From the NCBI GenBank assembly GCA_028823145.1, contig JAPKCA010000001.1:240-64239 (forward strand): DNA of 64,000 bases, written 5' to 3'. This document shows positions 1-59,890 of this stretch, piece after piece. The stretch's first letter is position 1; each line of letters begins with the position of its first letter. The position numbers and the translations under genes were made by a program. This DNA is from Flavobacteriales bacterium (GTDB lineage: Bacteria > Bacteroidota > Bacteroidia > Flavobacteriales_D > Sanyastnellaceae). Under the pieces are notes generated by a model that did no database searches, was not told the origin of the DNA, and saw only the letters and a list, made by a program, of their open reading frames with translations.

Positions 1-1
1 C

Positions 2-1265: not shown

Positions 1266-1272
1266 AGGGCCT

Positions 1273-2175: not shown

Positions 2176-2187
2176 GTTGTGAGAATT

Positions 2188-3473: not shown

Positions 3474-3507
3474 TCAAATCCTCCTCAAAATGTTTCGACT
3501 TCCCGCC
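3474..3507 (+). repeat. Intergenic repeat copy 3 (left arm + core only)
   Basis: tcaaatcctcctcaaaatGTTTCGACTTCCCGCC matches copy 1 positions 1180-1213 with 2 mismatches over 34 nt (the first base, and the a/t just before the core). Sequence after the core diverges. The further-upstream 'ctagtgtta' is also shared with 1144-1152. Confidence 0.8.
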
Positions 3508-3560
3508 CCGTTTCTCCTATATCTCAATGTCAATGAGTGGCATACTTTATAAATACAATG

Positions 3561-3589
3561 AGAAGGCCCCGCATTTTGCTGGGCCTTCT
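3561..3589 (-). terminator. Strong stem-loop, probably the terminator of the 3708..4250 gene
   Basis: agaaggccc / gggccttct stem (9 bp) with an 11-nt loop. On the minus strand it is followed by a moderately T-rich stretch (cattgtatttat). Confidence 0.4.
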
Positions 3590-3707
3590 TCATAAATCGT
3601 GTTGTTGAATGTCAGTGTGTATTCCTGATCGCTGAACACGCGTTCTTACAGTGAATAATCCTGGACGCAGCGAGCAGCGAAGCCGCAGGGACGAATGCCA
3701 CGTGAAG

Positions 3708-27608: not shown

Positions 27609-28991
27609 CTAACAATCAGCAAGGTAGCCTTGCAATTCAGCTTTGAATGCACCACCCAATGAAACAGCCGCTTCAGAGGTCTCAGCTTCAGCATATACCC
27701 GAATGATGGCTTCTGTGTTGGATCGCCGCAGATGAACCCACCCTTCAGGCAAGTCAAATTTTACGCCGTCAAGGGTGTTTACTTCAGCATCGGGATGGGC
27801 CGCGACCAACTGAGCCAGGGCTTCTTCCACTCCCGAATCCGGCAATTCCAATTTATCCTTGGAAATGACCCATTGCGGATAATCGCGGCGAAGTTCCGAC
27901 ATGGTTTTACCGGAGGCCACCAAATGAGTCAAGAACAGTGCTGCACCAACCACCGCATCTCGACCACAATGTGAAGCGGGATAAATGACACCACCGTTGC
28001 CTTCTCCTCCAATGACTGCGTTGGTTGTCCGAATCCCTTCGACCACATTGACTTCCCCTACCGCACTCGCTAGGTATTGGCCTCCATGTTTTTCTGTTAT
28101 TTGACGCAAAGCGCGGGTAGAACTCATGTTACTGACGGTGTTGCCAGGCGTATGCTGCAACACAAAATCTGCGACAGCTACCAAGGTGTATTCCTCGCCG
28201 AACCAACTCCCATCCTCACTTACAAATGCCAAACGATCCACATCCGGATCCACACTGATGCCCAGATGACAGCCATGAGCCACCACCGCTTCTCTCAAAT
28301 CCACCAAATGATTCGGAAGCGGCTCTGGGTCGTGCGCAAAATCTCCCGTTGGATCACAGTGAATCCGGATTACCTCACATCCCATAGCTTCTAAAAGTAT
28401 GGGCATAATGATGCCTCCACTTGAATTCACCGCATCGACGGCTACGCGCAAACCTCTTTTTCGAACGGCTTCAACATCAACCAATGCTAACTCAGTGGCA
28501 TGGGCCACATGTCTCTCCATCCATCCTTCCCGATGGTCGGTCCTCCCAATGGAATCAATTTCCGTGTATTCCAATGCCATAGACGCCCATTTCAAAACCT
28601 TCTCGCCATTCTCCGAAGAAAGGAATTCTCCATGAGCATCCAACAACTTCATGGCATTCCATTGTTTGGGATTATGACTTGCCGTCAAAACAATGCCTCC
28701 ATCAGCCTGCTCTCCTGGAACAGCCAATTCCACGGTCGGTGTCGTGCTCAACCCCAAATCCAAAACATGAACCCCCATCGCGTTTAGTGTTCCCACCAAG
28801 CAATCCCGGACCATCATGCCGCTCATTCGTGCATCACGTCCTACCACCACCGTTGGCTGGGTTTTTCCAGATGCATCTTTGAGCCATTTGGCATATCCAG
28901 AAGCAAATCGGACAACGTCAGGCGGGGTCAATCCTTGGCCTGCAATTCCACCGATGGTTCCTCGGATTCCCGATATTGAGGTGATGAGCAT
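27609..28991 (-). CDS. glmM: Phosphoglucosamine mutase / phosphohexomutase
   Basis: Starts MLITSISGIRGTIGG, with the active-site loop TASHNP and Mg site DPDVDR. Confidence 0.85.
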   Translation of the reverse strand: MLITSISGIRGTIGGIAGQGLTPPDVVRFASGYAKWLKDASGKTQPTVVVGRDARMSGMMVRDCLVGTLNAMGVHVLDLGLSTTPTVELAVPGEQADGGIVLTASHNPKQWNAMKLLDAHGEFLSSENGEKVLKWASMALEYTEIDSIGRTDHREGWMERHVAHATELALVDVEAVRKRGLRVAVDAVNSSGGIIMPILLEAMGCEVIRIHCDPTGDFAHDPEPLPNHLVDLREAVVAHGCHLGISVDPDVDRLAFVSEDGSWFGEEYTLVAVADFVLQHTPGNTVSNMSSTRALRQITEKHGGQYLASAVGEVNVVEGIRTTNAVIGGEGNGGVIYPASHCGRDAVVGAALFLTHLVASGKTMSELRRDYPQWVISKDKLELPDSGVEEALAQLVAAHPDAEVNTLDGVKFDLPEGWVHLRRSNTEAIIRVYAEAETSEAAVSLGGAFKAELQGYLADC

Positions 28992-45242: not shown

Positions 45243-48200
45243 ATGAACCATCTCCACCGCCTTCAAACCCACCTATTTGCAGCGCTTTTGATGGGTGGTT
45301 CTGCCGCATTCAGTTGGGGGCAAGATTCGGCACTATTTGAAGATATATCAGCAAGTGCCGGAGTGAACTTTACTGGAGTTCATCATTCCGTTGCCATAGT
45401 TGATTATGACGGCGATGGATGGGAAGACATCTATGTGGGAAGCAAGTTTCAGAACAATTCGCTTTTCCGGAACATGGGTAATCTGACCTTTCAAGAAGTC
45501 GGTGCTTTGGCGGGCGTTGATGACCCTGGAGATTCACATGCCGTGCTTTGGGGCGATTTCAACAACGATGGCTGGCCCGATTTAATTACCGGGAACTACT
45601 TAGAAGCCAACCGATTCTATTGGAACAACGGCGATGGAACGTTCACTGACATGACCACGCAGCTGGGAGTCGGGAATACGGGACCCTGCAGGAGCTTGCA
45701 CGCCGCTGATTTTGATCAAGACGGCTGGCTAGACCTGTACGTGGTCAATATCAATAGTCAAAATGTCATGTGGCGCAATTTGGAAGGCGAGGGTTTCCAG
45801 AATCTGACCTTTCAAACCGGAACAACAGACATGGGTGTTGGCATGGGCAGCGTGTTTTTCGATGCCGATAACGATGGCGATCAAGACTTGTATTTGACCC
45901 GCGATGGAAATCAGGTCAACCGCTTTTTCAGCAACAACGGCAACGGAACTTTCACTCAAATGGCTGCTGAGGTCGGGCTCGATTTCCAAGGCAACTGCAT
46001 GGGAGTTGACGTCGCTGACATCAATCACGACGGCTGGCTTGATCTCTACATTACGGATCTGTATCCGAGTGAACTTTTCATCAACGATGGTGACGGAACA
46101 TTTACCGCGATTGGAGAATCCTCCGGAGTCAACGATATGGGCATGAGCTGGGGATGTGCTTGGCTGGATTTTGACAACGACTCGGAGTCCGACTTGTACA
46201 TCGTAAACGACTATGCTTTTGCCCCGATGTCCAACATCCTTTACCGGGGATTAGGCGACTTGGCATTCGAGGTTGTCAGTGCAGGAGATTCTGTGTTGGA
46301 GCACAACTATTCCGATTACGGTTTGGCTCAAGGGGATTTTGATCGCGATGGCGATATGGACTTAGCCGTGGCATCTACTGGCTCCATCACCCTTCCTGGT
46401 TTCACATTGCTGAAAAACCTGAATTCTTCTGGCCATTCCATCCAATTCAAACTCGAAGGGACCTCATCCAATCGAGATGCTGTCGGCGCACGAGTCACCG
46501 CCTACTTTGATGGCACAATGCGCATGGACGAAGTCAATTGTGGCCAAGGATATAGCGGAGCCAGCTCCATGGTTTTGCATTTTGGTCTTGGGTCCACCAC
46601 GGAATTGGATTCATTGCACATTCGCTGGCCCAACGGAATCAACAGCACATACGAAAGCATGGCTGCGGATTCATTGTATCATTTGGTCGAGCCTGGAGCC
46701 AACTCCTGGTTATATTATGGATGCACCGAAACCCATGCATGCAATTATCAAAGCGCCTCTGTCGAAAACGATGGCTCGTGTGAATACCCCAATGCCGGAC
46801 TGGATTGCAATGGTTCTCCATTGCCCGACTTCCCAACTTTGGAGACCCATAGCATTGCACGATTATGGAATGAAGCTCTTTTGGTGGCAATCCGAAACGA
46901 TTGGGCGCGTCCTACTGTGCACGCGCGCAACTTGTGGCACAGTTCTGCGCTGATGTATGACGCGTGGTCAGCCTTTTCAGAACCCAGCATCGTGAGTCCT
47001 CAGTCTTGGCTTTTGGGTGACACAGTGGATGGTTTTTCCATCCCCTTTTCTGGCGTGCTTGAACCGGAAAGCGATTCAGAACGTCTCATAGCTCGTCGCA
47101 GAGCTCTCAGCTTCGGCATGTATCGCTTATTGCAGCATCGTTTTGCTCTCGCCCCGCATGCACAATTGATTTCCGTTCATCTCCATTCTCAGATGGAATC
47201 CTTCGGGTATGACACGGCTTTTGTCTCCATGGATTACACGACCGGTGATTTAGAACACGATGCCGCTGCCCTTGGAAATTATTTGGCGCAGCAATACATC
47301 GCTTTTGGATTGCAAGATGGTTCACGGGAAGAAATCCAATTCCAAAACACCTATTACAATCCCATGAATTGGAATTTGGTTATGGACGAACCCGGCAACC
47401 CAAACATGTTTTTTCCAAACCGATGGCAGCCGCTGCAGTTGGCTGAATTCATCGACCAATCAGGAAATGAAGGCTCCAATATTTCACCGGACTTTCTGAG
47501 TCCAGAATGGGGGGATGTCACTCCCTTTGCCATGGACACGAGTGATACCAGCTTGTTCGAACGGCTGGGCAGTACCTACACGGTTTATCATGATCCAGGG
47601 GCTCCCCCCCAAATTAATCCATTGGTCGATTCCGATTTGGAATCCGATTACAAATGGGGACATGTACTGGTCGCCCAATGGTCCTCCCATCTCGACCCTT
47701 CAGACAGTGTTGTATGGGATATCAGCCCCGGAGCTTTTGGACGCAATGGAGACACGCCTACCACTATGGAAGAAGCGCGGCTCTACTACCTCACAGAAGA
47801 AGGCGGAATGGCGCCTGGAGAAGGTGAAGTGGGCCATCCGTACAATCCAACCACCAATGAGCCATATGCTCCACAATCTGTTTTGCGTGGGGATTTCACG
47901 CGCGTCCTAGCCGAATTCTGGGCAGATGGGCCCGAATCAGAAACTCCTCCTGGTCATTGGTTTACATTGATGAATTATGTCAATGACCAGCCTTCCACCT
48001 TGAGGAAATGGCGTGGTACGGGAGAATCCATGTCTCAACTGGATTGGGATGTCCTGGGCTACTTTGCAATGGGTGGCGCTATGCATGATGCAGCCATTTC
48101 AGCTTGGAGCATCAAAGGATGGTACGACTACGTACGCCCTGTATCGGCATTGCGATGGATGGCTGAAGGCGGTCAAAGTAGTGACCCAGAGCTCCCCAAT

Positions 48201-48980
48201 TTCCATGGATCGGGCCTGCCATTGATTCCTGGGTTTGTGGAATTGATTGCAGATTCTGATCCAGTTGAATTGCGCGGAGAGAACAATGAACATGTTGATG
48301 ATATCAAGCTCAAGTCGTGGTTGGGGCCCACAGCGATTCAAGTTCCTGCGATCGACAAAGCTGGAGTCGGTTGGATTCGGGCAAAGGAATGGTGGCCGTA
48401 TCAAAGGCCCACATTTGTCACACCGCCATTTGCTGGATATATCAGCGGACACTCGACCTTCAGCCGGGCTGCAGCGGAGGTATTGACCTTGCTGACCGGA
48501 GATGAGTACTTCCCTGGCGGCTTGGGGACATTCCCTGTAGAAGCTCATGAATTCCTCGTGTTTGAGGATGGTCCATCACAAGACCTGGAATTGCAATGGG
48601 CCACGTACCGAGATGCAGCAGATCAAAGTGCGTTGTCTCGCATTTGGGGCGGCATCCACCCACCACAGGATGACTTTCCAGGACGGATCATCGGCGAACT
48701 CGTTGGAATCGACGCTTTTTTACTTGCGGAAACGTACGCCTTCCCATTGCTCTCTCCAGACTGTGGAAGCCAAAATGGCTGTCCATGTCCCGGTGACTTC
48801 AACCAAGATGGTGCTCGGAATTTACCGGATATTTTGCTTTTGCTGATGCATTATGGCGAGCCCATTACTTGGGATGGAAATGGCGCATCACCGGTGATCG
48901 ATCTCGACAACAACGGCATCATCGGAATTGGAGACTTATTAGGTCTGTTGGGCGTTTGGGGTCAACCTTGCAGCGATTGA
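45243..48980 (+). CDS. Large secreted fusion: FG-GAP/VCBS + ASPIC/UnbV (CRTAC1-like) region, ACNY Cys module, vanadium-haloperoxidase/PAP2-like domain, and two dockerin-like repeats
   Basis: Signal peptide. Repeated DxDGDGWxDLY FG-GAP units. RDAVGARVTAYFDG...QGYSGASSMVLHFGLG (ASPIC/UnbV). The PAP2/VHPO triad is K958-x6-RP (IKGWYDYVRP), ISGHST, and SRIWGGIHPPQDD. The tail has GDFNQDGARNLPDILLLLMHYG and DLDNNGIIGIGDLLGLLGVWG. Confidence 0.8.
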   Translation: MNHLHRLQTHLFAALLMGGSAAFSWGQDSALFEDISASAGVNFTGVHHSVAIVDYDGDGWEDIYVGSKFQNNSLFRNMGNLTFQEVGALAGVDDPGDSHAVLWGDFNNDGWPDLITGNYLEANRFYWNNGDGTFTDMTTQLGVGNTGPCRSLHAADFDQDGWLDLYVVNINSQNVMWRNLEGEGFQNLTFQTGTTDMGVGMGSVFFDADNDGDQDLYLTRDGNQVNRFFSNNGNGTFTQMAAEVGLDFQGNCMGVDVADINHDGWLDLYITDLYPSELFINDGDGTFTAIGESSGVNDMGMSWGCAWLDFDNDSESDLYIVNDYAFAPMSNILYRGLGDLAFEVVSAGDSVLEHNYSDYGLAQGDFDRDGDMDLAVASTGSITLPGFTLLKNLNSSGHSIQFKLEGTSSNRDAVGARVTAYFDGTMRMDEVNCGQGYSGASSMVLHFGLGSTTELDSLHIRWPNGINSTYESMAADSLYHLVEPGANSWLYYGCTETHACNYQSASVENDGSCEYPNAGLDCNGSPLPDFPTLETHSIARLWNEALLVAIRNDWARPTVHARNLWHSSALMYDAWSAFSEPSIVSPQSWLLGDTVDGFSIPFSGVLEPESDSERLIARRRALSFGMYRLLQHRFALAPHAQLISVHLHSQMESFGYDTAFVSMDYTTGDLEHDAAALGNYLAQQYIAFGLQDGSREEIQFQNTYYNPMNWNLVMDEPGNPNMFFPNRWQPLQLAEFIDQSGNEGSNISPDFLSPEWGDVTPFAMDTSDTSLFERLGSTYTVYHDPGAPPQINPLVDSDLESDYKWGHVLVAQWSSHLDPSDSVVWDISPGAFGRNGDTPTTMEEARLYYLTEEGGMAPGEGEVGHPYNPTTNEPYAPQSVLRGDFTRVLAEFWADGPESETPPGHWFTLMNYVNDQPSTLRKWRGTGESMSQLDWDVLGYFAMGGAMHDAAISAWSIKGWYDYVRPVSALRWMAEGGQSSDPELPNFHGSGLPLIPGFVELIADSDPVELRGENNEHVDDIKLKSWLGPTAIQVPAIDKAGVGWIRAKEWWPYQRPTFVTPPFAGYISGHSTFSRAAAEVLTLLTGDEYFPGGLGTFPVEAHEFLVFEDGPSQDLELQWATYRDAADQSALSRIWGGIHPPQDDFPGRIIGELVGIDAFLLAETYAFPLLSPDCGSQNGCPCPGDFNQDGARNLPDILLLLMHYGEPITWDGNGASPVIDLDNNGIIGIGDLLGLLGVWGQPCSD

Positions 48981-48981: not shown

Positions 48982-51231
48982 CTAGTCGTGTATTCCTTGG
49001 GCATGAACCACCAGTTCATCCATAAACATCCAAGACGGCGAAGATGCCGCATCATGCCAATCAGGACAAGGACCTGGGTTCACCGCTTCCATTCGAATCC
49101 ATTCTGCTTGTGCATCCGCAGGCAGTGAAATCCGCACGATATCTTGCAAATCTGTTGGTTCCAAGATATTTCCCAAACTCACCGTTTGGCCTTGCCAATC
49201 TTCCCCATCCAAAGACCAACCAAAATAGATATCCGCTGGTAAAAATATCCAAGCATCTTGGTAGCGGTATAACTGGACGCTCAGTGAGTCCAACATCACG
49301 CGTTGCGGAAGTTGCATCGTGATGGACATATTCTCTGATTGGATCGCCTGCCAGCATCCATCGCGAAAGTCCAAAGAACCCAGCCGCCCATCCGCCAATC
49401 CTTGCATTCCACCACCTGGATAATACGGGCTAATTGAATGACCAATTGTCACCTCTGAGAAAGCGCCAACATGTCCGGCTACAGGGAATATCAGGGTATC
49501 ACGGAGCGGGCGTCCGTGGCGATTTAATATCGCTTGGATTTCACCTTCTCCCTTCAACGACATAAGCGAACCCAAAGGCCTCGAATCGCCAGGTTCCAAA
49601 TCGGACCGCTCGACAAATTGAACCGTTCCTTCCAAATGACCAATGGCCCTTGTCAACGTCACGTCTACACCAAACGGATCGCCCCCCTTGTTCCATGAGA
49701 CCTCAAGCGGAACAGCTTCCAACCCCGCATCTACTCCCCATGCATCGAGCCGTCGGTCGTGCCGAATTTTACGGTCTGAAAAACCTTCCCAATTTCTCAA
49801 ATTTTTGGGACTCCACAGCACCTCTGCCAAAGCCACCATACGTGGAAAGACTTTCGATTCAACCAAGGATTGAGGTGCGTGCTCGGTCCACATGTTGCAT
49901 TCACCACCCAAAATCCGACCCGCGCCCTCCAGGCCTTCAGGCTCAGGTTCAAATCCATATACTTCCTCCATATTGGTGGCACTTATGGGGTAGTCAAAGT
50001 AGCAATGCGACGTAGGAGACATGATGGCATCGCGTCCGGCATTTACAGCAGCCATGCCACCTTCCATTCCACGCCAAGACTGAACAGTAGCGCCCTCCGG
50101 CAAGCCACCCTCCAAGATTTCGTCCCAACCGATTAACTGGCGGCCATGTGCGGCCAAATACCGTCCAATTCGATTGATGAACCAAGACTGAAGTTCATGC
50201 GTGTCATGCAATCCCTCTTCCTCCATCCTTTTTTGGCATTTTGGGCATGCATCCCAACGCACTTTGGGAGCTTCATCCCCACCGATATGAATGAATCGTG
50301 ATGGAAACAACTCCATGACCTCATCCAAAACCGATTCCAAAAAGCGGAAGGTCGTGTCTTGGCCAGCGCAATAAATATCTTTAAAAACTCCCCAATCATT
50401 GGGAACCTCCAAGGTGTCTCCGGTGCAGCTGAGCCATGGATAAGATGCCAATGCCGCACGGCTGTGTCCGGGCAATTCAATTTCCGGTATGACGGTGACA
50501 TGGCGCTGATGCGCATAGGCAACGATGCCACGAATTTCTTCTTTCGTGTAGTAGCCACCGTGTTGAGAACCATCCTTTTCGGTGCGCCATGCACCCACGG
50601 TGGTCAAAGATGGATACGCTTCGATCGGTACGCGCCAACCTTGATCTTCTGTCAAATGCCAATGGAGCACGTTCATCTTGTGAAGCGCCAGTAAATCAAT
50701 CATCCGTTTGATAAAATCCGGCTCCATGAAGTGCCTGCAGCAATCCAGCAAAAGACCTCGATGTTCGAAGCGGGGCGCATCAAAAATTTCCACTTCAGGC
50801 ATCAGAACATCATTTTTAAACCCAAGTTGTTCCGCTTCCACGGGCAGGATTTGACGCAACGTGGTCAACCCTCGAAAAACCCCTTCAGCATCTGAAGCAT
50901 GGATACTGACCCCTTTCGTGGAATCCACCTGCAAACCATATCCACCAACAGGGGTTTTTTCGGAAAAAATCACACGCAATGGAGTACCTGTTGAATCTGC
51001 TTGACCTGGAATCCAATCCTGCCAAAATCCTTGCTGACCCACCCATTTCGGAGATATTTCCCAGCGCCATCGGAGTCCCTTCACCAACAAAGTGGCCGCT
51101 GATGCCTTCGTTTCCATTTGAGCGGGCAAGGGGACCAATCCATCCAAAGAACCATACACCGATTCTTCAGCAGTTTGGGAACATGAAGAAAGGATCAAGC
51201 AGATAACAAAAGGGAGAATGGTGAATCGCAT
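48982..51231 (-). CDS. GH20 beta-N-acetylhexosaminidase lipoprotein with a C-terminal discoidin (F5/8 type C)-like domain
   Basis: Lipobox MRFTILPFVICLILSSC. GH20 catalytic HIGGDE, with HWHLTDDQGWR-like HWHLTEDQGWR. The start could also be 51255. Confidence 0.85.
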   Translation of the reverse strand: MRFTILPFVICLILSSCSQTAEESVYGSLDGLVPLPAQMETKASAATLLVKGLRWRWEISPKWVGQQGFWQDWIPGQADSTGTPLRVIFSEKTPVGGYGLQVDSTKGVSIHASDAEGVFRGLTTLRQILPVEAEQLGFKNDVLMPEVEIFDAPRFEHRGLLLDCCRHFMEPDFIKRMIDLLALHKMNVLHWHLTEDQGWRVPIEAYPSLTTVGAWRTEKDGSQHGGYYTKEEIRGIVAYAHQRHVTVIPEIELPGHSRAALASYPWLSCTGDTLEVPNDWGVFKDIYCAGQDTTFRFLESVLDEVMELFPSRFIHIGGDEAPKVRWDACPKCQKRMEEEGLHDTHELQSWFINRIGRYLAAHGRQLIGWDEILEGGLPEGATVQSWRGMEGGMAAVNAGRDAIMSPTSHCYFDYPISATNMEEVYGFEPEPEGLEGAGRILGGECNMWTEHAPQSLVESKVFPRMVALAEVLWSPKNLRNWEGFSDRKIRHDRRLDAWGVDAGLEAVPLEVSWNKGGDPFGVDVTLTRAIGHLEGTVQFVERSDLEPGDSRPLGSLMSLKGEGEIQAILNRHGRPLRDTLIFPVAGHVGAFSEVTIGHSISPYYPGGGMQGLADGRLGSLDFRDGCWQAIQSENMSITMQLPQRVMLDSLSVQLYRYQDAWIFLPADIYFGWSLDGEDWQGQTVSLGNILEPTDLQDIVRISLPADAQAEWIRMEAVNPGPCPDWHDAASSPSWMFMDELVVHAQGIHD

Positions 51232-51264
51232 GGTTTCAAAAATAGGGTGTTGCATATGCTCAAA

Positions 51265-52776
51265 TCACGGGAACCACGCGCGAACCGCATCAGCTGAAAC
51301 GGGGTACGTGGTGCCATCAAAATACTTCATGGTTCTTTCATTTTTCTGTCGGCATGAGGCATGCACGGCACCGACCCCCATGTTCTGCCAAGTCGCTTTT
51401 TGGTCGGGATGAACGCCACTCGCCACAGTGACGTCGAATCCCCATTCCAGCAATTGAGCAATTCTGGCTTGGCCATCCCATGCACGCTCTTCACCTCCAC
51501 TACTCAACAACCTCAAAACCCCCAATTCACGCAAGGCATGTACATCCGACTCCCAATTTAGCGAAGCGTCCAATGCTCGGTGGATGACAAGTCGGTGTGC
51601 GCCAAACAAGTCGGTCCAGCGACGAATTTTTTCGATTTCGAACCGGCCTTGAGCGTCCAATGCGCCAACTACGACGCGACTAGCACCGGAATTCAACGAT
51701 GCTTCAACTTGATGGGTCATCCCCTCCCATTCAGATTCGGAATACTCAAAATGTCCCGCCCGTGGACGGATCAAGCTGTATACCGGAATGCCATGCTCGC
51801 AAGCACGGCGAATATCCACTTCGTTGGGCGTTAAACCACCGCATTCCCAATGGGAGCATAGTTCCACTCGACGGGCACCATGAGCCGAAGCAATGGCCAC
51901 ATCTTCTGGTGAACTGGCACACACTTCCAATGTCAACGGGTCGTTTGGATCGGCAAGTTGGTGGCTGACATGTTCCAAATCCGCCAAGCTCGTCATGTCC
52001 AATATGGATTCCGCGATGGGCAAAACCTCCAATCCATGGCCGGAATCAATCATGGCCTGCACGGCAGATGGCAATTCCTTTTCCCCACGTTTCGGATGCG
52101 GTGACAAGGCGAGTAAAAAAGGCATTAAAATTTCAGCATCAAACCGGAAAAGATTCATTGAAACCAAGACCGGACCCTTCAAATGCAAGCGGTTAATGGT
52201 ACTTACGTCTGGCTTTTCACAAATGGAAACAAGACGTCCCTCTTGCATTTCGATAACGGCAAATGATTCAACCCGATCTGGCGGCAATCCCAGACACATG
52301 CGGTCATAGCCTAAAAGCGCTTGACCAGAGGGGACTCCTCGCAACCGAGCCAAAGCTCGAACCGAAGGTAAATTATCCCCGTTGCATAAAACAAAGCCCG
52401 ATTGAGAAGGCAATGGATCTTGTTCCATCGCCACCAACACTGCATGGCCCGTGCCGAGGGGTTCATCTTGAATTGCCAACGCAATGCGCATCCGAACCCC
52501 GATGCCCCGCTCATTCCACCCTTGGACAAACGATTCAGTAACGTGATCTGACGGAGCTACGACCAATGTCGCTTCACTGAAACCAGCCGCTAGTGCGTTC
52601 TCTAAAACAAACTGCAAAAACGGCTGCCCTTCTTCTCCGACTCGGATCATGGGTTTTGGTCGGGACAAGGCGTCTTGACGCCATGCGTCCGGCCAATGGG
52701 ATGCTGTCTGCGCCGAACTTTTCTTCATGCGTGTCGCCCTGCCAGCCCCTAAAATGATGATTCGTTCACATCGCAT
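51265..52776 (-). CDS. Fusion protein: sugar-phosphate nucleotidyltransferase (N-terminal ~280 aa) + CutC-family TIM-barrel domain (C-terminal ~220 aa)
   Basis: The N-terminus has IILGAGRATRM (GxGxR pyrophosphorylase loop), EPLGTGHAV and CNGDNL. From about aa 281, LTLEVCASSPEDVAIASAHGARRVELCS...GGLTP...IRPRAGHFEYS matches the CutC signature layout. Confidence 0.75.
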   Translation of the reverse strand: MRCERIIILGAGRATRMKKSSAQTASHWPDAWRQDALSRPKPMIRVGEEGQPFLQFVLENALAAGFSEATLVVAPSDHVTESFVQGWNERGIGVRMRIALAIQDEPLGTGHAVLVAMEQDPLPSQSGFVLCNGDNLPSVRALARLRGVPSGQALLGYDRMCLGLPPDRVESFAVIEMQEGRLVSICEKPDVSTINRLHLKGPVLVSMNLFRFDAEILMPFLLALSPHPKRGEKELPSAVQAMIDSGHGLEVLPIAESILDMTSLADLEHVSHQLADPNDPLTLEVCASSPEDVAIASAHGARRVELCSHWECGGLTPNEVDIRRACEHGIPVYSLIRPRAGHFEYSESEWEGMTHQVEASLNSGASRVVVGALDAQGRFEIEKIRRWTDLFGAHRLVIHRALDASLNWESDVHALRELGVLRLLSSGGEERAWDGQARIAQLLEWGFDVTVASGVHPDQKATWQNMGVGAVHASCRQKNERTMKYFDGTTYPVSADAVRAWFP

Positions 52777-52818
52777 GAGCTAAAGGTCTACAAATCTTTT
52801 TGACATCAAGTTCCCTGA

Positions 52819-53874
52819 TTAATCCTGTTCTATTGTCACTCCATCTTCTCCCAGTTCCACAACCATTGGTCGTCCTCCCTTAGATTCTACGGCTGAATTC
52901 ACATCTTGAACCATCGAACTCTCCGTGACCACAAAGCAGGTACCCCCTCCACCCGAACCATTGATTTTTCCACCCCATGCTCCGGCATCCAAGGCTGCCA
53001 TCAGAATGCGATCGATGCGATCAGTTGAAACATGGAGCACATCGCGAAGCAAATCATGGTGGTGTGTCAACAAAGGAGCCCATTGAAGCGGTTCATCGGC
53101 AAAATCCCTCAAACCTTGGTATCCGAATTCGCTGACATCACGAATGGCCACTGTTCCTTCCATCAATGCGCTTTGGTCAAGCGAGAATGAAACAGGAAGT
53201 GGAGGCAGTGCCTTGCCGGAGTCCAAAGACCAAGTGGTATCCCAATGCTCCATCAAATCCAGTCGTTGGTGTTTGGCACGCCCCAACACACCCAAGGTGT
53301 TTTTCGGTTCGCCGGAATCGATTAATATCCACGTTCCTGTTGGTTTGGGAAGGCTGATTTCACAAAAGGAAGGCGCAAATTCAAATCTCCTCACTCCTCC
53401 CAATGCACAGGCATAGTGGTCCATCATTCCACCGGGTTCGTTGAACCATTGAACTTCAGCGCGATGTGCTGCTTCCGCTACCCAGCGAGGAGTTACATCC
53501 AAGCCCGAACGAACAGCAATCATACCACACCAGGCCACCACCAAAGCGGTTGAACTACTGGCTCCCGCTTGCTGTGGAATATCACTCGTCACTTGCGCAT
53601 TCCAACCCGTTTTAGGCAACCATCCTTCACGGGAAGCGACATGCAATGCCGACAACCAATATCCCCTGGAACCTGGCGCAGGCAACGCATCCAAATCCCA
53701 CGAAAAAACCTCCCCGATATCCAATAATTCGAGATGAACGATCCGATCTTCCCGGGATTGACTCCGCACTTGGCAGCGAACATCTACGGCAGCAGCAACC
53801 ACCGGCAACCCCAAATAATCCTGGTGCTCACCAAACAGGCAAATACGGCCAGGAGCTGAAGCATTGACGTTCAC
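52819..53874 (-). CDS. GHMP-family sugar kinase (galactokinase / GalNAc-kinase-like)
   Basis: APGRICLFGEHQDYLG (galactokinase signature), IPQQAGASSSTALVVA (GHMP ATP motif) and INGSGGGGTCFVV. The GTG start at 53874 forms a GTGA overlap with the upstream symporter stop. The listed 54045 start runs into the symporter gene. Confidence 0.75.
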   Translation of the reverse strand: MNVNASAPGRICLFGEHQDYLGLPVVAAAVDVRCQVRSQSREDRIVHLELLDIGEVFSWDLDALPAPGSRGYWLSALHVASREGWLPKTGWNAQVTSDIPQQAGASSSTALVVAWCGMIAVRSGLDVTPRWVAEAAHRAEVQWFNEPGGMMDHYACALGGVRRFEFAPSFCEISLPKPTGTWILIDSGEPKNTLGVLGRAKHQRLDLMEHWDTTWSLDSGKALPPLPVSFSLDQSALMEGTVAIRDVSEFGYQGLRDFADEPLQWAPLLTHHHDLLRDVLHVSTDRIDRILMAALDAGAWGGKINGSGGGGTCFVVTESSMVQDVNSAVESKGGRPMVVELGEDGVTIEQD

Positions 53875-55631
53875 TTCTTGGAGCGATTGATCCAAATGAT
53901 CGCTACAGCACAAATCACGGCAAGGGAAGTCAACCAGATGGCTCGATCGGTGGCAGCATACAACCACGAACCCGTCGCAAACAAGGCAGCATACACCCCG
54001 ACTGAACCCAAAATCATAGAGAGCATGCCCATGGGAACCGACCACGCTTCTCCTTTGGGTGAACCGTCACTCCATCTTTTCCATCCGGGACCCCCTGGAC
54101 GAACTTTGGACACAAAAGATTGCAACGTAGCATCCGACTCAGCTGGAGTTAATAACGTTCCGACTATCCAAATCGAGGTCGTCAACAAAGTCCCCCACAG
54201 CAGCTTTTCGTAGTCGGCCAATTCCACCCAATTCAAGTGATCATGGACGAACGTAAAGTAGCCTGCGACCAAAATCGATCCTACCATCGCAATCAACTCC
54301 GTCCAAGCACTGATTCGCCACCAAAACCATCGCAGAATGAAAAGCCCGCCCGTTCCAGCACCAATCAACAACAGCAAATTGAATGCTTGCCCCGCATCCG
54401 TCAACAACAATCCCAGTCCTCCTCCCAAAATGAGCGAAATTACCGTGGCAATGCGACCCGCTCGAACTTGCTCCCTTCCCGTTGCTTCAGGATGAATGAA
54501 TCTCACCCAAAAATCATTGACCAAATAGCTCGCGCCCAAATTGATTTGCGTCGACATGGTACTCATAAAAGCCGCAAGCAACGAAGCTGCGACAAGGCCT
54601 AACAGCCCTGGAGGAAGCAATGAAAGCATGGCAGGATAGGCCAAATCATGTCCAATCTTGTCGGCGGGTATATCTGGGAATGCTTGTTGCAAATCAGCCA
54701 GAGTAGGATAAACCACGATGGATGCCAAGGCAATCAAAATCCATGGCCATGGACGCAAGGCATAGTGCGCCACATTGAACAACAACGTAGCACCCACGGC
54801 ATTCGACTCGTCCTTGGCGCTAAACATGCGTTGGGCGATGTACCCTCCACCTCCGGGTTCTGCACCGGGATAATAACTCGCCCACCATTGCACCGCTAGA
54901 GGAACCAACAAAACGGGGATCCAAGCCGAAGGATCGGACATGTCAGGCAGCATGTTCGTTTTTGAAGCCACATCCGGATGCTCAAGAAGGGCCGTCAATC
55001 CCCCAATCATCTCCAAGTCTAACAAATAGATACATGCCCAAACGCTGCCGATCATCGCCAATATGAATTGAACGAAATCGGTCAAAATCACAGCCCTAAG
55101 CCCTCCCAACGCACTGTAAGAAATCGTAATGACACCGGTAATCAGAAGCGTCAGCCATCCTGGCCAGCCCATCAAAATGCCACCGAGCTTAATGGCCGCC
55201 AACGAAACCGTTCCCATGACCAATACATTGAACACCAAACCCAAGTACAAGGCTCTGAAGCCCCTCAACCATGCAGCCGGTTTCCCTCCGTAACGCAATT
55301 CATAAAATTCGATGTCCGTCAAAACGCCCGAACGGTGCCACAACCGGGCATACACAAAAACCGTGAGCATTCCCGTCAACAAAAAGGCCCACCAGCCCCA
55401 GTTTCCGCTCACCCCTTGTTCCCTGACGAGACCCGTCACCAAGTTCGGCGTGTCTGTGGAAAATGTGGTCGCCACCATACTCACTCCGAGCAACCACCAT
55501 GGCATGTTGCCTCCTGCCAAGAAAAAGCTCTTGGCATCTTGACCTGCTTGACGTGAAGCCCAAAGGCCAACACCCATGGCCAACAAAAAATAGGCCGCGA
55601 TGATCGCCCAATCTAGTCCTGTTAAATGCAT
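53871..55631 (-). CDS. Sodium:solute symporter (SSS) family transporter
   Basis: 586 aa, about 13-14 TM segments, with an SSS-like N-terminus (LDWAIIAAYFLLAMGVGLWASR...FFLAGGNMPWW). Confidence 0.8.
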   Translation of the reverse strand: MHLTGLDWAIIAAYFLLAMGVGLWASRQAGQDAKSFFLAGGNMPWWLLGVSMVATTFSTDTPNLVTGLVREQGVSGNWGWWAFLLTGMLTVFVYARLWHRSGVLTDIEFYELRYGGKPAAWLRGFRALYLGLVFNVLVMGTVSLAAIKLGGILMGWPGWLTLLITGVITISYSALGGLRAVILTDFVQFILAMIGSVWACIYLLDLEMIGGLTALLEHPDVASKTNMLPDMSDPSAWIPVLLVPLAVQWWASYYPGAEPGGGGYIAQRMFSAKDESNAVGATLLFNVAHYALRPWPWILIALASIVVYPTLADLQQAFPDIPADKIGHDLAYPAMLSLLPPGLLGLVAASLLAAFMSTMSTQINLGASYLVNDFWVRFIHPEATGREQVRAGRIATVISLILGGGLGLLLTDAGQAFNLLLLIGAGTGGLFILRWFWWRISAWTELIAMVGSILVAGYFTFVHDHLNWVELADYEKLLWGTLLTTSIWIVGTLLTPAESDATLQSFVSKVRPGGPGWKRWSDGSPKGEAWSVPMGMLSMILGSVGVYAALFATGSWLYAATDRAIWLTSLAVICAVAIIWINRSKK

Positions 55632-55674: not shown

Positions 55675-56034
55675 TCATAAGCCGAGCTCCAATCGGGATT
55701 TTTTCGTCATGGAAGCGACAACTCGCTCGTAACTATGTTCAATCAACTCTCCCACCAGTTTTAACGGTACATCCGATTCAGCATCAACAGAATTCCAATG
55801 CTTCTTATTGAGGTGCCAACCTGGCCGAATGCCCAGAAACTGCTCTCGCAATTCGATGGCTCGTTCCGGACTGCACTTGAGAGAAATGCCGGTAAAATTA
55901 TCAATGTCCGCAATCGCAAACACCTTTCCCTCAACCTTCCACACCATGGTATGTGTGTCGAACGGAAAGCTCTCTGAAACGTACCGATAGGACAAGCATA
56001 CGTCACGAACTTCATCGAATTCAAAAGATCTCAT
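55675..56034 (-). CDS. MmcQ/YjbR family protein
   Basis: FPFDTHTMVWKVEGKVFAI...SLKCSPERAIELREQF..I.PGWHLNKKHWNSV is typical of the family. Confidence 0.75.
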   Translation of the reverse strand: MRSFEFDEVRDVCLSYRYVSESFPFDTHTMVWKVEGKVFAIADIDNFTGISLKCSPERAIELREQFLGIRPGWHLNKKHWNSVDAESDVPLKLVGELIEHSYERVVASMTKKSRLELGL

Positions 56035-56090
56035 TGGGAATGAAGGAAAGGAAGCTAATTTGCGGCAAATTTCGACGAAACCTTATCACG

Positions 56091-57023
56091 ATGAAAATTA
56101 CAACTTTACTCACGGTAGCGGCTACTTTGACTTCGGTCATATCTAGCGCACAATGCACCGATTTATTTATATCTGAATACCTGGAAGGAACTGGCAACAA
56201 CAAGGGGCTCGAGTTCTACAACCCGACGTCAGAAACCATCAACCTCTCTGGTTATCAATTGCAGCGTTGGAGCAATGGCGAAGGCACAGCGACCGATTGG
56301 GTCGACTTGATTGGCGAAGTTGCCCCGTTCGGCACCTGGGTATTGGTCAATGGACAAACGGAAGATGTGGACCTCGGCGGTGGAGCAACTTCTCCTTTGT
56401 GCGATCCAGCTATGCAGGCTCTTGCAGATCAATTGGACAACCCGTACCCTGCTCCTACCTACATGAACGGAGATGACGCATTGGTATTGGTCAAAAACAT
56501 CACGACCATTTTGGATATTTTTGGAAAACCCGGTGAGGATCCTGGTGTGGCTTGGACCAACGATGAAGCGAACGGATACATCGATATCGGAGATGGAGCA
56601 GCATGGTTGACTTCCAATCATACGTTGCGTCGCAAATATGACGTAATCCAAGGCGTTGTAATACCTCCAGTAAGCTTCAACACCTTCTTGGAATGGGATA
56701 CGTTGGTGGTGAACACGTGGGATGGATTGGGTGAGCATTTTTGTGCCTGCAATCCAAACGAAGTTGCTGAAATGAGTCCAGCTGTGACTACGTCGGTTTT
56801 CCCGAATCCTTCCTCAAATGGCATGTTGACCATCCAAGCGGATGCTCGGATTATGAAAGTGACCATTCACTCCATGACAGGCGCTTTGGTCTGCGAAGAA
56901 TTTGCAATTCCGGGCGGCTCACTGGCTGGCTGGAAGACACGTGAATTGAACGCAGGTTCCTACATCGTCAATTTGTACGTCGAAGGCGGAAAGACCTTTG
57001 CTCATCAAGTTTTGATTCAATAA
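56091..57023 (+). CDS. Secreted lamin-tail-domain (LTD) protein with a T9SS C-terminal domain
   Basis: Signal peptide MKITTLLTVAATLTSVISSAQ. DLFISEYLEGTGNNKGLEFYNPTSETINLSGYQL resembles the LTD at the N-terminus of ExeM/NucH-type extracellular nucleases. CTD SVFPNPSSNGMLTIQ... Confidence 0.7.
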   Translation: MKITTLLTVAATLTSVISSAQCTDLFISEYLEGTGNNKGLEFYNPTSETINLSGYQLQRWSNGEGTATDWVDLIGEVAPFGTWVLVNGQTEDVDLGGGATSPLCDPAMQALADQLDNPYPAPTYMNGDDALVLVKNITTILDIFGKPGEDPGVAWTNDEANGYIDIGDGAAWLTSNHTLRRKYDVIQGVVIPPVSFNTFLEWDTLVVNTWDGLGEHFCACNPNEVAEMSPAVTTSVFPNPSSNGMLTIQADARIMKVTIHSMTGALVCEEFAIPGGSLAGWKTRELNAGSYIVNLYVEGGKTFAHQVLIQ

Positions 57024-57027
57024 AAGC

Positions 57028-59880
57028 ATGCGGATCGCTTCGTTCTGGTTTTTCGCGTTTCTGCTGTGCGCGATAGGTGTCAACGCCCAACAAAGCGGCA
57101 AAATATATGGCGTAGTTTCAGATGCAATCACCGGTGAAACATTGATTCAAGCATCTGTTCGGTTGGGAAATTCTGGCGTTGCTACGGATTTTGACGGGCG
57201 CTATGAAATGGGGCTTCCTTACGGACAACATGACATTACCGTAAACTACATCGGTTACGAAAGTCAGACAAGGACCATCACCGTTGATAGCCCACAGTTG
57301 CAGGTCAATTTTACCTTAGCTACCATTGTTTTGCGCGAGGCAGAAGTGATCGCTGATGTCGCCATTGAAAGAGAAACCCCCGTGGCTTTTTCCAACATCA
57401 AACCGGTCCAAATTCAAGAGGAATTGGGTTCACAACCCATTCCCATGATTTTGAATTCTACGCCTGGTGTGTATGCCACTCAAGCAGGTTCGGATGACAA
57501 TGGCCCGTCCATTTCGATTCGCGGATTCAAGCAACGCAATGTTTCTGTTCTCATCGATGGTATCCCTGTCAATGACATGGATAGCGGTGGTGTTTTTTGG
57601 AACAACTGGTTTGGACTTGATATGGTGACACAAACCATGCAGGTCCAGCGGGGATTGGGGGCCTCCAAACTCGCATTGCCTGCAATTGGTGGCACGGTCA
57701 ACATTGTGACCCAGGGCATTGAAAGCAAGCGCAAGACGTCTGTCAAGCAGGAAGCTGGAAGTTTCGGGTTCACCCGGACCTCAATTGGCCACACAAGCGG
57801 ACGATCAGATGGTGGCTGGGGGTATACCCTCGCAGGAAGTTTTCAAAATCGCCAAGGGTATTTTGACCAAGACTACAACCGTGCGTTCTTCTATTATGTG
57901 AAGGTTCAAAAGGCGATGGGGAATCACACGTTGTCGATCAGCGCTACAGGATCTCCATCTGAAAATGCGTCCCGGGGCTACCAGCAGAGGATTGCCACCC
58001 ATGATAAAGACTTCGCGCGAAACCTGTTTGAAGGCACGGACGATGAGTATGAATACCTGCGCGGCTACAGCCAAGGCTATGACGGAATCTTCAACAATGA
58101 CACGTTGTTGGAGCCTGAAGAACAAGCGGCATATGCTGAACTGAACGCGGAGTATGGTTACAATTCCTCGGATGATTTTGAAGAGGAAGTTTCTGCGACT
58201 GACTTCATAGACACCACCGGATTGGTGAGCTACGGCAACGGCTACAATGTGCACTGGGGCGAGCTCAACAATGAGGTGTTGTACGAAAGGCAAAACAAGT
58301 ACCACAAACCCCTCTTCTCCGTGCGCCACAACTGGCGCGCCACGGAAAAATTGTACATCTCCAACATGGCTTATGCGAGTTACGGATACGGCGGTGGTTC
58401 ACGGTTGGAAAACAGCTTAGGTGCCGGTGATTACACGCCCGACGGCCAAGTCGACTTCCAGAAGTTCTACAACACCAATACCATTGGCGGATTGTTCGGC
58501 CCTCCCATTGACCCGACCTACAGTGATTCATTGCTGAAGTCTACTCGGATTCTTCGAAAATTGTACAACAACCACTATTGGTACGGTGTGCTATCGACGT
58601 TCCGTCATGAGACAACGGAGAACCTGACATTGTCAGGTGGCTTGGATTTCCGCACGTACCAAGGCGAGCACTACGCGGAGGTACACGACCTGTTAGGCGG
58701 CGACTATTTTATTGACAATCGGAATGCCAACGCAACAAGCAATATGCGGACTGTTGGCGACAAAATCGGATACCACAACGATTCATTTGTGCGCTGGGGT
58801 GGCGCATTTGCCTTGCTCGAATACAAAGGATACGTATGGAATGCCTTCCTTAACATCAGCGCCGTCACTCAAGGGTACAAGAGTGTTGACTATTTCTCTG
58901 AACCCAATGAGGACGGATCCTTCGCGACAAGTGGTTGGAAATGGATTCCCGGATACACGATCAAAGCAGGCGGGAACTACAACCTGTCTGAGTACTCCAA
59001 TGCGTTCGTCAACTTGGGCCATTTGAACCGAACACCGGTGTTCCGAAGTGTCGTGGATTACGAAAACGAATTTGTCCAAAACACCGAGAATGAATTGATC
59101 AATTCCGTGGAATTGGGATACAGTTTCAGCAAGTTCCCTTTTAGCGCGAACATCAATGCATACTACACGGATTGGCAAAACCGTCCGCTCCAATCGCTTT
59201 TGCGCTATGAAACCGTTGATGGCGATATCGTGCGAGCCAATGTGAACTCCATGAGTGCCGTGCACAAGGGCATCGAAGCCGATGCTGCATGGCAGGTGCG
59301 TCGCAACCTGACCATCGAAGGATACATCAGCCTGGGTGACTGGAAGTGGACGAGCTCTGAAGATAGCTTGGTGCTTTTGGATGAAAACACGAATTTGCAA
59401 TACTTCGATCAGGAAGGAAATCCAGCCATTGTCCAATACAATGCGGAAGGTGTGGCAGTGGGAGATTCTCCACAGCGGCAATACAGCATGTCCATCAAGT
59501 ATTCATTCAAGAAGTTCTATATCAAACCAAGATTTACGGTGTTCAGTAGGCATTATGCCGATTTCGACCCGTTCAGCCTCTACGGTGAAAATGAAGGCCG
59601 TCAATCGTGGCAAATCCCCACCTACGGTTTGCTCGACTTGCATACAGGATACAATATGGATATCGGTGGGAGCAATGTTGACTTCCGCTTGAGCGCATTC
59701 AATATTTTGAACACGGTATACTTGAGCAACGCTCAAAACAACGATGCCTTTGGCCAGTATTATTTCAATGATCCAGGCCGCAAATACGCCTTTAGTCAAA
59801 ACAACTTCGATGCTGGATCAGCCAGTGTCTACATGGGATACGGATTCCGAACCAACTTCTCCGTCCGAGTCCGCTTCTAA
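57028..59880 (+). CDS. TonB-dependent receptor with an N-terminal carboxypeptidase-regulatory-like domain
   Basis: GKIYGVVSDAITGETLIQASVRL (CarbD-like), a plug region (GSDDNGPSISIRGF..RNVSVLIDGIPVND), a long beta-barrel, and a terminal ...VRVRF. Confidence 0.85.
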   Translation: MRIASFWFFAFLLCAIGVNAQQSGKIYGVVSDAITGETLIQASVRLGNSGVATDFDGRYEMGLPYGQHDITVNYIGYESQTRTITVDSPQLQVNFTLATIVLREAEVIADVAIERETPVAFSNIKPVQIQEELGSQPIPMILNSTPGVYATQAGSDDNGPSISIRGFKQRNVSVLIDGIPVNDMDSGGVFWNNWFGLDMVTQTMQVQRGLGASKLALPAIGGTVNIVTQGIESKRKTSVKQEAGSFGFTRTSIGHTSGRSDGGWGYTLAGSFQNRQGYFDQDYNRAFFYYVKVQKAMGNHTLSISATGSPSENASRGYQQRIATHDKDFARNLFEGTDDEYEYLRGYSQGYDGIFNNDTLLEPEEQAAYAELNAEYGYNSSDDFEEEVSATDFIDTTGLVSYGNGYNVHWGELNNEVLYERQNKYHKPLFSVRHNWRATEKLYISNMAYASYGYGGGSRLENSLGAGDYTPDGQVDFQKFYNTNTIGGLFGPPIDPTYSDSLLKSTRILRKLYNNHYWYGVLSTFRHETTENLTLSGGLDFRTYQGEHYAEVHDLLGGDYFIDNRNANATSNMRTVGDKIGYHNDSFVRWGGAFALLEYKGYVWNAFLNISAVTQGYKSVDYFSEPNEDGSFATSGWKWIPGYTIKAGGNYNLSEYSNAFVNLGHLNRTPVFRSVVDYENEFVQNTENELINSVELGYSFSKFPFSANINAYYTDWQNRPLQSLLRYETVDGDIVRANVNSMSAVHKGIEADAAWQVRRNLTIEGYISLGDWKWTSSEDSLVLLDENTNLQYFDQEGNPAIVQYNAEGVAVGDSPQRQYSMSIKYSFKKFYIKPRFTVFSRHYADFDPFSLYGENEGRQSWQIPTYGLLDLHTGYNMDIGGSNVDFRLSAFNILNTVYLSNAQNNDAFGQYYFNDPGRKYAFSQNNFDAGSASVYMGYGFRTNFSVRVRF

Positions 59881-59890
59881 TCGTCATATC

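Follow-up and report, generated by a model that had tools for sequence, protein, structure and literature searches.

The question raised by this locus is whether four closely packed genes in the genome of a marine Flavobacteriales bacterium, encoding a sodium:solute symporter (SSS), a GHMP-type kinase, a fusion of a nucleotidyltransferase with a CutC domain, and a GH20 beta-N-acetylhexosaminidase, act together on a sugar, and on which one. The genes are located on contig JAPKCA010000001.1 (assembly GCA_028823145.1), of which 64,000 nt (positions 240–64,239 of the forward strand) were analyzed and are referred to here as the window. An earlier note on this DNA had proposed that the block encodes a transporter–kinase–pyrophosphorylase salvage route for hexosaminidase products. 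Our results suggest, with moderate confidence, that the locus represents a scavenging route for an N-acetylhexosamine (HexNAc), most probably N-acetylgalactosamine (GalNAc), and possibly also N-acetylglucosamine (GlcNAc). In the proposed pathway, a lipid-anchored GH20 enzyme would trim terminal beta-HexNAc from glycans outside the cytoplasm, an SGLT-type Na+/sugar symporter would import the freed sugar, and the galactokinase-like GHMP kinase would phosphorylate its anomeric O1, yielding HexNAc-1-phosphate. The transferase domain would then convert HexNAc-1-phosphate and a nucleoside triphosphate (NTP, probably UTP) to a nucleoside diphosphate (NDP)-HexNAc and pyrophosphate, and the NDP-sugar would either feed glycan synthesis directly or join the UDP-GlcNAc pool after 4-epimerization.

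The combination of SSS symporter, GHMP kinase, and nucleotidyltransferase is a module that recurs in Bacteroidota, Ignavibacteria, Aminicenantes, KSB1, Calditrichota, and further groups. A protein search yielded more than 4,500 relatives of the kinase, and a genome scan detected the family in at least 566 species genomes of FCB-group phyla. Carriers include the Cytophagales genera Fibrella, Siphonobacter, Larkinella, Fibrisoma, and Aquirufa, as well as Saprospiraceae, Ignavibacteria/Melioribacter, Balneolales, Aminicenantes, KSB1, Calditrichota, Cloacimonadota, and Fidelibacterota; family members are now named ‘GHMP kinase’, ‘mevalonate kinase family’, or ‘galactokinase family’ protein. For the neighborhood analysis, all open reading frames (ORFs) within 7 kb of the kinase were taken from 83 loci and clustered unlabelled, and the large clusters were annotated afterwards. 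The kinase cluster was recovered in 81 of the 83 loci. Its most frequent neighbor was a nucleotidyltransferase of approximately 290 aa (57 loci; 46 of the 69 loci outside the lineage carrying the fusion), followed by SSS symporters (38 loci), GH109-type proteins featuring GFO_IDH_MocA and Glyco_hydro_109_C domains (18), NAD-dependent epimerases (14), a clan GH-D-like, unannotated protein of approximately 900 aa with weak Melibiase/GH31 similarity (12), GH20 enzymes (12), ROK regulators (9), and a melibiase-like protein of approximately 680 aa (8). Further clusters represented LacI, GntP-permease, and SusC proteins.

Direct adjacency was counted outside the fused lineage and for loci with enough flanking sequence. 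The earlier note had made its proposal depend, beforehand, on conservation beyond this genome, and such conservation is borne out: the transferase lies directly downstream of the kinase in 37 of 61 loci, extending to other phyla and classes, often with an SSS gene upstream (directly so in 17 of 58 loci), and one of the glycosidase types occurs within 7 kb of the kinase in 21 of 40 loci. In Ignavibacteria and Bacteroidota, the genes are typically arranged as melibiase-like protein, GH109 (or, in its place, the 900-aa protein), SSS, kinase, transferase, ROK regulator, and epimerase. The module-adjacent epimerases scored best against the GalE and TviC (UDP-HexNAc(A) C4-epimerase) models, with 169–208 bits and thus below cut-off, and the ROK regulator scored best against NagC. 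Other arrangements comprise GH109, (MFS transporter), and kinase in Fibrella and Fibrisoma, and, in locus L010, GH89/NAGLU, an MBL-fold protein, kinase, transferase, 900-aa protein, GH20, and SSS.

The family of approximately 900-aa proteins was found in loci L010 (12014–14746), L048 (11943–14735), L024, L028, L031, L040, L047, L049, L053, L060, L072, and L081. Its similarity to Melibiase/GH31 TIM barrels ranged from 5e-7 to 5e-5 in Pfam and reached 0.005 for alpha-galactosidases in the PDB, and it may represent a so far undescribed glycosidase similar to clan GH-D, such as an alpha-N-acetylgalactosaminidase.

Within the lineage of the window, the fusion protein has 52 relatives in a collection of 5.8 billion proteins, all of them from uncultivated Flavobacteriales-like genomes. 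The order symporter, kinase, fusion, and GH20 was kept in every related Flavobacteriales locus inspected, down to 43–44% identity of the fusion, and because it recurs in every such locus fetched, the four-gene block is no chance arrangement. The flanks of these loci are likewise syntenic, comprising YjbR, a lamin-tail-domain (LTD) protein with a type IX secretion system (T9SS) tail, a TonB receptor, a PLD-like protein, an FG-GAP protein, S20, and RadC.

Concerning the kinase, Pfam assigned the domains PF10509 (GalKase_gal_bdg; 35.4 bits, cut-off 23.1), PF00288 (GHMP_kinases_N; 43.2 bits, cut-off 22.3), and PF08544 (GHMP_kinases_C; 35.8 bits, cut-off 21), and the GHMP superfamily motifs, namely motif II (P-x-x-x-G-L/S-S-S-S-A; here IPQQAGASSSTA) and the glycine-rich motif III (KINGSGGGGT), are present and conserved. 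Across 27 sequences sharing 37–62% identity, neither the motif PGRxCLFGEHQDY nor the loop GGxMD varies, and residues R10, E16, H17, D19, Y20, and D152 are likewise invariant. The segment PGRICLFGEHQDY aligns to motif I of the Pyrococcus furiosus galactokinase GalK (SPGRVNLIGEHTDY), and GGMMDH aligns to CGILDQ, which places the protein in the galactokinase family of anomeric sugar kinases, characterized by motif I (G-R-x-N-L-I-G-E-H-x-D-Y) with its Arg and by an Asp-containing G-x-x-D-Q loop. By analogy with GalK structures, this Arg and the Asp of the GGMMDH/CGILDQ loop are taken to be catalytic. Unlike the window kinase, mevalonate kinases feature Lys in place of the Arg and are devoid of D-Y (APGK...GEHAVV motif). 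In the AlphaFold2 model (pLDDT 92), galactokinases were the top structural matches (TM score 0.86), ranking above mevalonate kinases.

By PDB E-value, the kinase is nearly equidistant from archaeal mevalonate kinases (1e-17) and the P. furiosus galactokinase (9e-17); reading the top E-values as a mevalonate kinase was rejected on the basis of the motif (Arg, D-Y) and the gene context. The protein also stayed below the mevalonate kinase models NF003036 (108.7 bits versus 403) and TIGR00549 (88.6 versus 163), and below those for canonical GalK (EC 2.7.1.6), namely TIGR00131 (71.6 versus 226.65), NF003006 (85 versus 443), and NF001816 (83.3 versus 509). The GalNAc kinase GALK2 (EC 2.7.1.157; 2a2c) yielded a weak partial match restricted to the N-terminal half (3.5e-10). 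An APH domain (PF01636) was found by Pfam in none of the four proteins, the kinase fold being GHMP, and an Fkp-type fusion is not present here, kinase and transferase being separate ORFs. Since the galactokinase motifs are invariant and galactokinases are the structural matches, the kinase is read as an anomeric sugar kinase of a separate, unnamed GHMP subfamily; the C1 kinase of the earlier note thus finds its galactokinase hallmarks in the predicted protein. One family member, in locus L003 (6909–8001), was called short (323 aa) and was returned by tblastn in two pieces, and its near-identical counterpart in L004 is intact (356 aa); a frameshift or a misassembly probably explains the split.

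The N-terminal half of the fusion matched Pfam NTP_transferase (PF00483) with 39.5 bits versus a cut-off of 21.2 (6e-10), as well as NTP_transf_3, and is 32–39% identical to the unfused transferases (approximately 280–310 aa) encoded after the kinase in other phyla. Residues G12, R16, K41, Q103, G108-T109, N132, D134-N135, and E187-K188-P189 are invariant in 20 fused and unfused members. Both these motifs and the fold assign the domain to the sugar-1-phosphate nucleotidyltransferases, whose hallmarks are an N-terminal G-x-G-x-R...K loop, a (G)T-x-x-A loop for base and sugar, a D/N that binds metal, and E-K-P. The model of the whole fusion protein reached a pLDDT of 93 and a pTM of 0.92. Its transferase half matched GlmU, UDP-glucose pyrophosphorylases (GalU), and RmlA/RffH by fold, and its sequence profile retrieved ADP-glucose pyrophosphorylases (GlgC) first, then 3pnn, GlmU, and ST0452-type enzymes. 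None of the GlmU, MurU, or RmlA equivalogs was reached (best TIGR03992, 63.9 bits versus 292; MurU 18.5 versus 250; GlmU models at most 33). As judged from the model, the transferase probably uses UTP. The PDB entry 3pnn (‘conserved domain protein’, 303 aa) matched the profile of the module transferases over its full length (1.1e-12) and may be a structural representative or a close relative of this family.

The symporter was assigned to Pfam SSF (PF00474) with 110.6 bits (1.1e-31). Among solved structures, it is closest to the Vibrio sodium/galactose transporter vSGLT (2xq2, 4.9e-33), with human SGLT1 and SGLT2 coming next; vSGLT ranking above the proline, iodide, and choline transporters, it belongs with the SSS/SGLT sugar symporters, its substrate being predicted. 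The GH20 enzyme featured Glyco_hydro_20 (PF00728; 374.6 bits, 7e-112) and Glyco_hydro_20b, the catalytic GGDE at residue 325 (HIGGDE at residues 322–328), and full-length homology (residues 21–750) to the solved 774-aa beta-hexosaminidase 6q63 (1.3e-130), confirming the family. Its N-terminus, MRFTILPFVICLILSSC, contains a lipobox-like LSSC, and all homologues of the lineage have a Cys after the hydrophobic signal-peptide core, so that lipid anchoring, and with it the lipoprotein call of the earlier note, is plausible. Taken together, the cross-phylum neighborhoods, the motifs, and the predicted folds lend good support to the proposed logic of transport, C1 phosphorylation, and nucleotidyl transfer.

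The coordinates of the block and of further features of the window are compiled in Table 1. Every domain of the four proteins scored above its Pfam gathering cut-off, and no NCBIfam equivalog cut-off was reached by any of them; consequently, none represents a named curated enzyme. The four minus-strand genes, their domains, and their tight spacing agree with what the earlier note had stated. Direct reading of the junctions recovered the claimed overlap of the symporter stop TGA with the kinase GTG start as GTGA, the claimed 42 nt between kinase and fusion, and the claimed spacing between fusion and GH20 of 9 nt (first ATG) or 33 nt (second ATG); the four genes are presumed to be co-transcribed. 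The GTG start of the kinase is considered correct because 26 homologues start at the same residue in the alignment. The end of YjbR is located 43 nt upstream of the SSS start; YjbR is upstream in most lineage loci (absent from L007, L008, and L074) and may be the first gene of the same transcript, outside the conserved module.

Table 1. Features of the analyzed window (positions are those of the 64,000-nt stretch).
Feature	Position	Strand	Description
SSS/SGLT-type sodium:solute symporter	53871–55631	minus	586 aa; predicted inner-membrane sugar importer
Galactokinase-like GHMP kinase	52819–53874	minus	351 aa, GTG start; predicted HexNAc (GalNAc) 1-kinase
GTGA stop/start overlap, symporter/kinase	53871–53874	minus	read from sequence: aag aaG TGA acg tc
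NTP_transferase+CutC fusion gene	51265–52776	minus	503 aa
Fusion, N-terminal sugar-1-phosphate nucleotidyltransferase domain	51952–52776	minus	approximately residues 1–275
Fusion, C-terminal CutC-family TIM-barrel domain	51265–51951	minus	approximately residues 276–503
GH20 exo-beta-N-acetylhexosaminidase	48982–51255	minus	757 aa; lipoprotein-type signal
YjbR/MmcQ-family small protein	55675–56034	minus	Pfam YjbR 2.7e-25
Phosphoglucosamine mutase (GlmM)	27609–28991	minus	469.6 bits (equivalog cut-off 439)
Divergent trio	55953–62092	plus	LTD/T9SS-tail protein; SusD-less TonB-dependent receptor; PLD-like (PLDc_2)/T9SS-tail protein
FG-GAP/ASPIC protein, convergent with GH20	45243–48980	plus	1245 aa; FG-GAP/VCBS repeats, ASPIC/UnbV, vanadium-chloroperoxidase-like helical domain
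Region of deviating GC content	1–4000		GC 0.39–0.40 (approximately 0.50 elsewhere)

Regarding the sugar, which the earlier note had left open among the HexNAcs, GlcNAc may also serve in this lineage, and GalNAc is now favored by the GH109, melibiase-like, and 4-epimerase neighbors. GH109 enzymes act as alpha- and beta-N-acetylgalactosaminidases. GalNAc would be the most economical single substrate for the kinase family, because GH109, GH20, and clan GH-D enzymes can all release it, and because the 4-epimerase would thereby be explained. Furthermore, GH109 or a melibiase-like protein, and not GH20, is the usual glycosidase partner elsewhere, which therefore points to GalNAc. GH20 also occurs beside the module in unrelated arrangements (L010, L073, and L083), and the sugar-contact motif of the kinase is identical between the GH109-linked and the GH20-linked branches of the 27-sequence alignment.

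Several observations weigh against this interpretation. The identity of the sugar follows from guilt by association, and GH20, the partner in this lineage, cannot separate GlcNAc from GalNAc. The nucleotide is ambiguous, with the sequence profile leading to ADP enzymes first and the fold to UDP/dTDP enzymes. There is no epimerase within the block of the window. Conservation of the four genes within the Flavobacteriales was rejected as independent evidence, the whole neighborhood being syntenic, and GH20 pairs with CutC with or without the module, so that it is more firmly linked to CutC than to the kinase. A scan for promoters and terminators found three promoter-like sites versus 7.9 expected by chance; it relied on the sigma-70 consensus, which is uninformative for Bacteroidota. 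Finally, the route is not needed for making UDP-GlcNAc, as the window encodes GlmM. Because of this phosphoglucosamine mutase, the organism very likely makes UDP-GlcNAc de novo, and the block would be a supplementary route. The mutase itself is of the archaeal type, passing TIGR03990 with the score listed in Table 1 and not the bacterial glmM model (200 versus 447), which is unusual for Flavobacteriales.

The NDP-sugar may be the end product, as in salvage, or equally an intermediate, as in Leloir-like catabolism. A catabolic Leloir/Isselbacher-like route would share the first three steps and would continue from GalNAc-1-phosphate via UDP-GalNAc, UDP-GlcNAc (by a 4-epimerase), and GlcNAc-1-phosphate to central metabolism, so that the block would serve growth on HexNAc and not envelope salvage. 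We regard this as rather unlikely, although a GalE/TviC-like epimerase and a NagC-like regulator directly follow the kinase and transferase in many loci of Ignavibacteria and Bacteroidota, and modules are often found in contexts resembling polysaccharide utilization loci (PULs), with SusC, LacI, and glycosidases. BT4240, the analogous GalNAc-1-kinase of the APH type, is, moreover, needed for growth on GalNAc, which makes GalNAc-1-phosphate a catabolic intermediate in Bacteroidota (PMC11992087). In the marine lineage, however, the block resides among housekeeping genes and not in a PUL, no epimerase, mutase, NagA, or NagB gene adjoins it, and the pyrophosphorylase step costs UTP unless it is cycled. 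Of the salvage proposed in the earlier note, the activation steps are supported, but a catabolic role is as conceivable as salvage, given the GalE/TviC-like epimerases and the catabolic precedent of BT4240.

It appears improbable that the module handles a non-acetylated sugar (galactose released by melibiase-like enzymes, another hexose, or a uronic acid) and that GH20 is a mere neighbor inherited with CutC. True galactokinases and the GalNAc kinase are equally close to the kinase, melibiase-like and clan GH-D-like proteins are frequent neighbors, and GH20 accompanies CutC even where the module is missing; yet the kinase falls below all canonical GalK equivalog cut-offs, the commonest glycosidase neighbor is GH109, GH20 and a GH89 NAGLU-like gene also neighbor the module in unrelated arrangements, the regulator resembles NagC, and the epimerase resembles TviC/WbpP. 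Highly improbable is an adjacency that reflects synteny alone, with no pathway and with a divergent mevalonate-type or other small-molecule kinase. Such a view could draw on the archaeal mevalonate kinases as the best PDB and NCBIfam hits by E-value and on the synteny of the whole neighborhood within the lineage, but the kinase–transferase adjacency persists across phyla where no other synteny survives, the galactokinase-specific motif with its Arg is present where mevalonate kinases have Lys and are devoid of D-Y, and the kinase shares a 4-nt translational overlap with a sugar symporter.

The CutC domain of the fusion requires separate consideration. The CutC family is conserved from bacteria to humans and is labelled ‘copper homeostasis’; no biochemical function of CutC was found in the literature. 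In the window protein, family membership is evident from PF03932 (122.6 bits versus a cut-off of 23.3, 1.9e-35) and from PDB matches to 1twd (1.7e-22) and human 3iwp; the fold of this half reached a TM score of 0.86 to the Shigella CutC chain, normalized to the target. E284, C286, E305, L306, and C307, forming E-x-C and E-L-C segments, are nearly invariant, and the E. coli-type CutC equivalog NF008603 was missed (118.6 bits versus 311). Sister contigs carry a standalone CutC that is 41–50% identical to the fused domain, overlaps by a few bases, and is directly upstream of a GH20 of 757–759 aa, itself 50–51% identical to the window GH20 over its full length. These pairs occupy the same syntenic site, adjoining S20, RadC, a UDP-GlcNAc 2-epimerase-like gene, and the PLD-like T9SS protein, with a GH2 beta-mannosidase-like gene opposite. 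On contig L092, the order is YjbR, standalone CutC, and the N-terminus of GH20, with no symporter, kinase, or transferase between them. In the loci examined, CutC was never found beside the kinase or fused to the transferase outside the Flavobacteriales lineage.

According to the simplest history, CutC and GH20 are an older local pair, and the CutC fusion is lineage-specific: the three-gene module would have been inserted between YjbR and the pre-existing CutC–GH20 pair, and the transferase would then have fused to CutC. Conversely, the module may have been lost from an ancestral five-gene block; also in this case, CutC still travels with GH20. The four-gene unit of the earlier note is hence no single evolutionary unit, its symporter–kinase–transferase module recurring across phyla and its CutC and GH20 representing a separate, older pair, as seen on the sister contigs.

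In the proposed scheme, the CutC domain would be an accessory enzyme belonging with GH20 and the breakdown of HexNAc glycans. In Xanthomonas, the neighbors of cutC are an asparaginase gene and the nix cluster for N-glycan degradation (PMC6718126, PMC5700972). In the locus of another organism, an Opp/Dpp-type ABC transporter is followed by CutC and an overlapping Amidohydro_1 gene. The GH20 pairs and the Amidohydro_1 locus (together L094, 3488–6470; L096, 2952–5940; L092, 5184–6298; L100, 7001–8904), along with the Xanthomonas nix cluster, suggest that the ties of CutC are to the catabolism of HexNAc glycans and not to copper; no sugar link was seen in a Microbacterium CutC locus, so that the association is not universal. 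Only tentatively can it be suggested that CutC is a cytoplasmic enzyme of HexNAc metabolism acting on what GH20-type hexosaminidases release, for instance as an anomerase, an epimerase, or another converter preparing HexNAc or HexNAc-phosphate for the next step. If this were true, the fusion to the transferase, the CutC–GH20 overlap, and the placement beside the Xanthomonas nix cluster would all reflect this role. In any case, the CutC fusion and the CutC–GH20 pairing offer a starting point for studying CutC function.

Further features of the window were recorded. The divergent trio (Table 1) accompanies the block in conserved synteny at all loci of the lineage and may be an extracellular set for scavenging nucleic acids or phosphodiesters. 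A protein similar to the FG-GAP/ASPIC protein is encoded in a Fibrella PUL adjoining the kinase (L009, 17196–20606). The region of low GC content at the start of the window, which may have been inserted from a foreign source, contains ORFs for a cupredoxin-like T9SS cargo, for a membrane protein resembling CAAX proteases, and for a leucine-rich repeat (LRR) protein with an EndoS-LRR-like match. Scanning the window with Rfam and for tRNAs gave no hits, hence no riboswitch or leader.

GalNAc and GlcNAc figure prominently in host mucins, N-glycans, chitin, and marine glycans. To our knowledge, the APH-type 1-kinase BT4240 is the only characterized entry step for GalNAc in Bacteroidota. In agreement with the earlier note, which was aware of no characterized system with this set of parts, our literature searches found none, and no paper describing a module of GHMP-based HexNAc kinase and nucleotidyltransferase was found. 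The kinase represents a widespread, unannotated, and uncharacterized family, and the enzymes of the module could serve the chemo-enzymatic synthesis of UDP-HexNAc analogues.

The functionally closest characterized system is BT4240–BT4243 of Bacteroides thetaiotaomicron, which comprises a GalNAc-specific APH-type 1-kinase, a GH2 enzyme, a major facilitator superfamily (MFS) transporter, and a GH109 enzyme (PMC11992087). BT4240 prefers GalNAc approximately 275-fold over GlcNAc, is essential for growth on GalNAc, and accounts for half of the growth on chondroitin sulphate, and the fate of GalNAc-1-phosphate was left undefined in that work (PMC11992087). The module described here, in which a GHMP-type kinase is joined by a nucleotidyltransferase of its own and frequently also by a 4-epimerase, is a candidate answer for the steps after GalNAc-1-phosphate. 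In both systems, each from Bacteroidota, a glycosidase releasing HexNAc in the periplasm, a sugar transporter of the inner membrane, and a cytoplasmic kinase for the anomeric position of HexNAc (predicted as such in the window) are encoded together, and many relatives of the window kinase adjoin GH109 as BT4240 does (e.g., GH109, MFS, and kinase in Fibrella). They differ in that BT4240 is of the APH/NahK type (PF01636), whereas the window kinase is a galactokinase-like GHMP protein, which makes the exchange a non-orthologous replacement; moreover, BT4240–BT4243 contains no nucleotidyltransferase, and its transporter belongs to the MFS and not to the SSS family.

Human GalNAc salvage by GALK2 and AGX1/UAP1 likewise employs a galactokinase-like GHMP enzyme that forms HexNAc-1-phosphate and a pyrophosphorylase that forms the UDP-sugar. 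The window transferase, however, is a small bacterial PF00483 enzyme and not of the UAP type (PF01704), the bacterial genes are clustered with a transporter and a glycosidase, and the sequence similarity to GALK2 is low. AmgK/MurU of Pseudomonas and Tannerella also lead from an amino sugar via its 1-phosphate to a UDP-sugar, bypassing de novo synthesis, and MurU belongs to PF00483; in contrast to the window proteins, AmgK is of the APH type, the transferase scored far below the MurU cut-off, and no link to N-acetylmuramic acid (MurNAc) exists. Fkp of Bacteroides resembles the proposed route in combining a GHMP anomeric kinase with a nucleotidyltransferase for one-pass sugar activation, also in Bacteroidota, but its activities are fused in one protein acting on L-fucose and GTP, whereas in the window the genes are separate and the transferase is fused to CutC. 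Lastly, the bifidobacterial galacto-N-biose/lacto-N-biose (GNB/LNB) pathway (NahK, a GalT-type enzyme, and GalE) handles GalNAc and GlcNAc in a Leloir-like manner via the 1-phosphate, the UDP-sugar, and a 4-epimerase. It resembles the order of kinase, transferase, and epimerase in many of the module loci, and it differs in its APH-type NahK and in a uridylyl step that exchanges with UDP-glucose instead of using a pyrophosphorylase.

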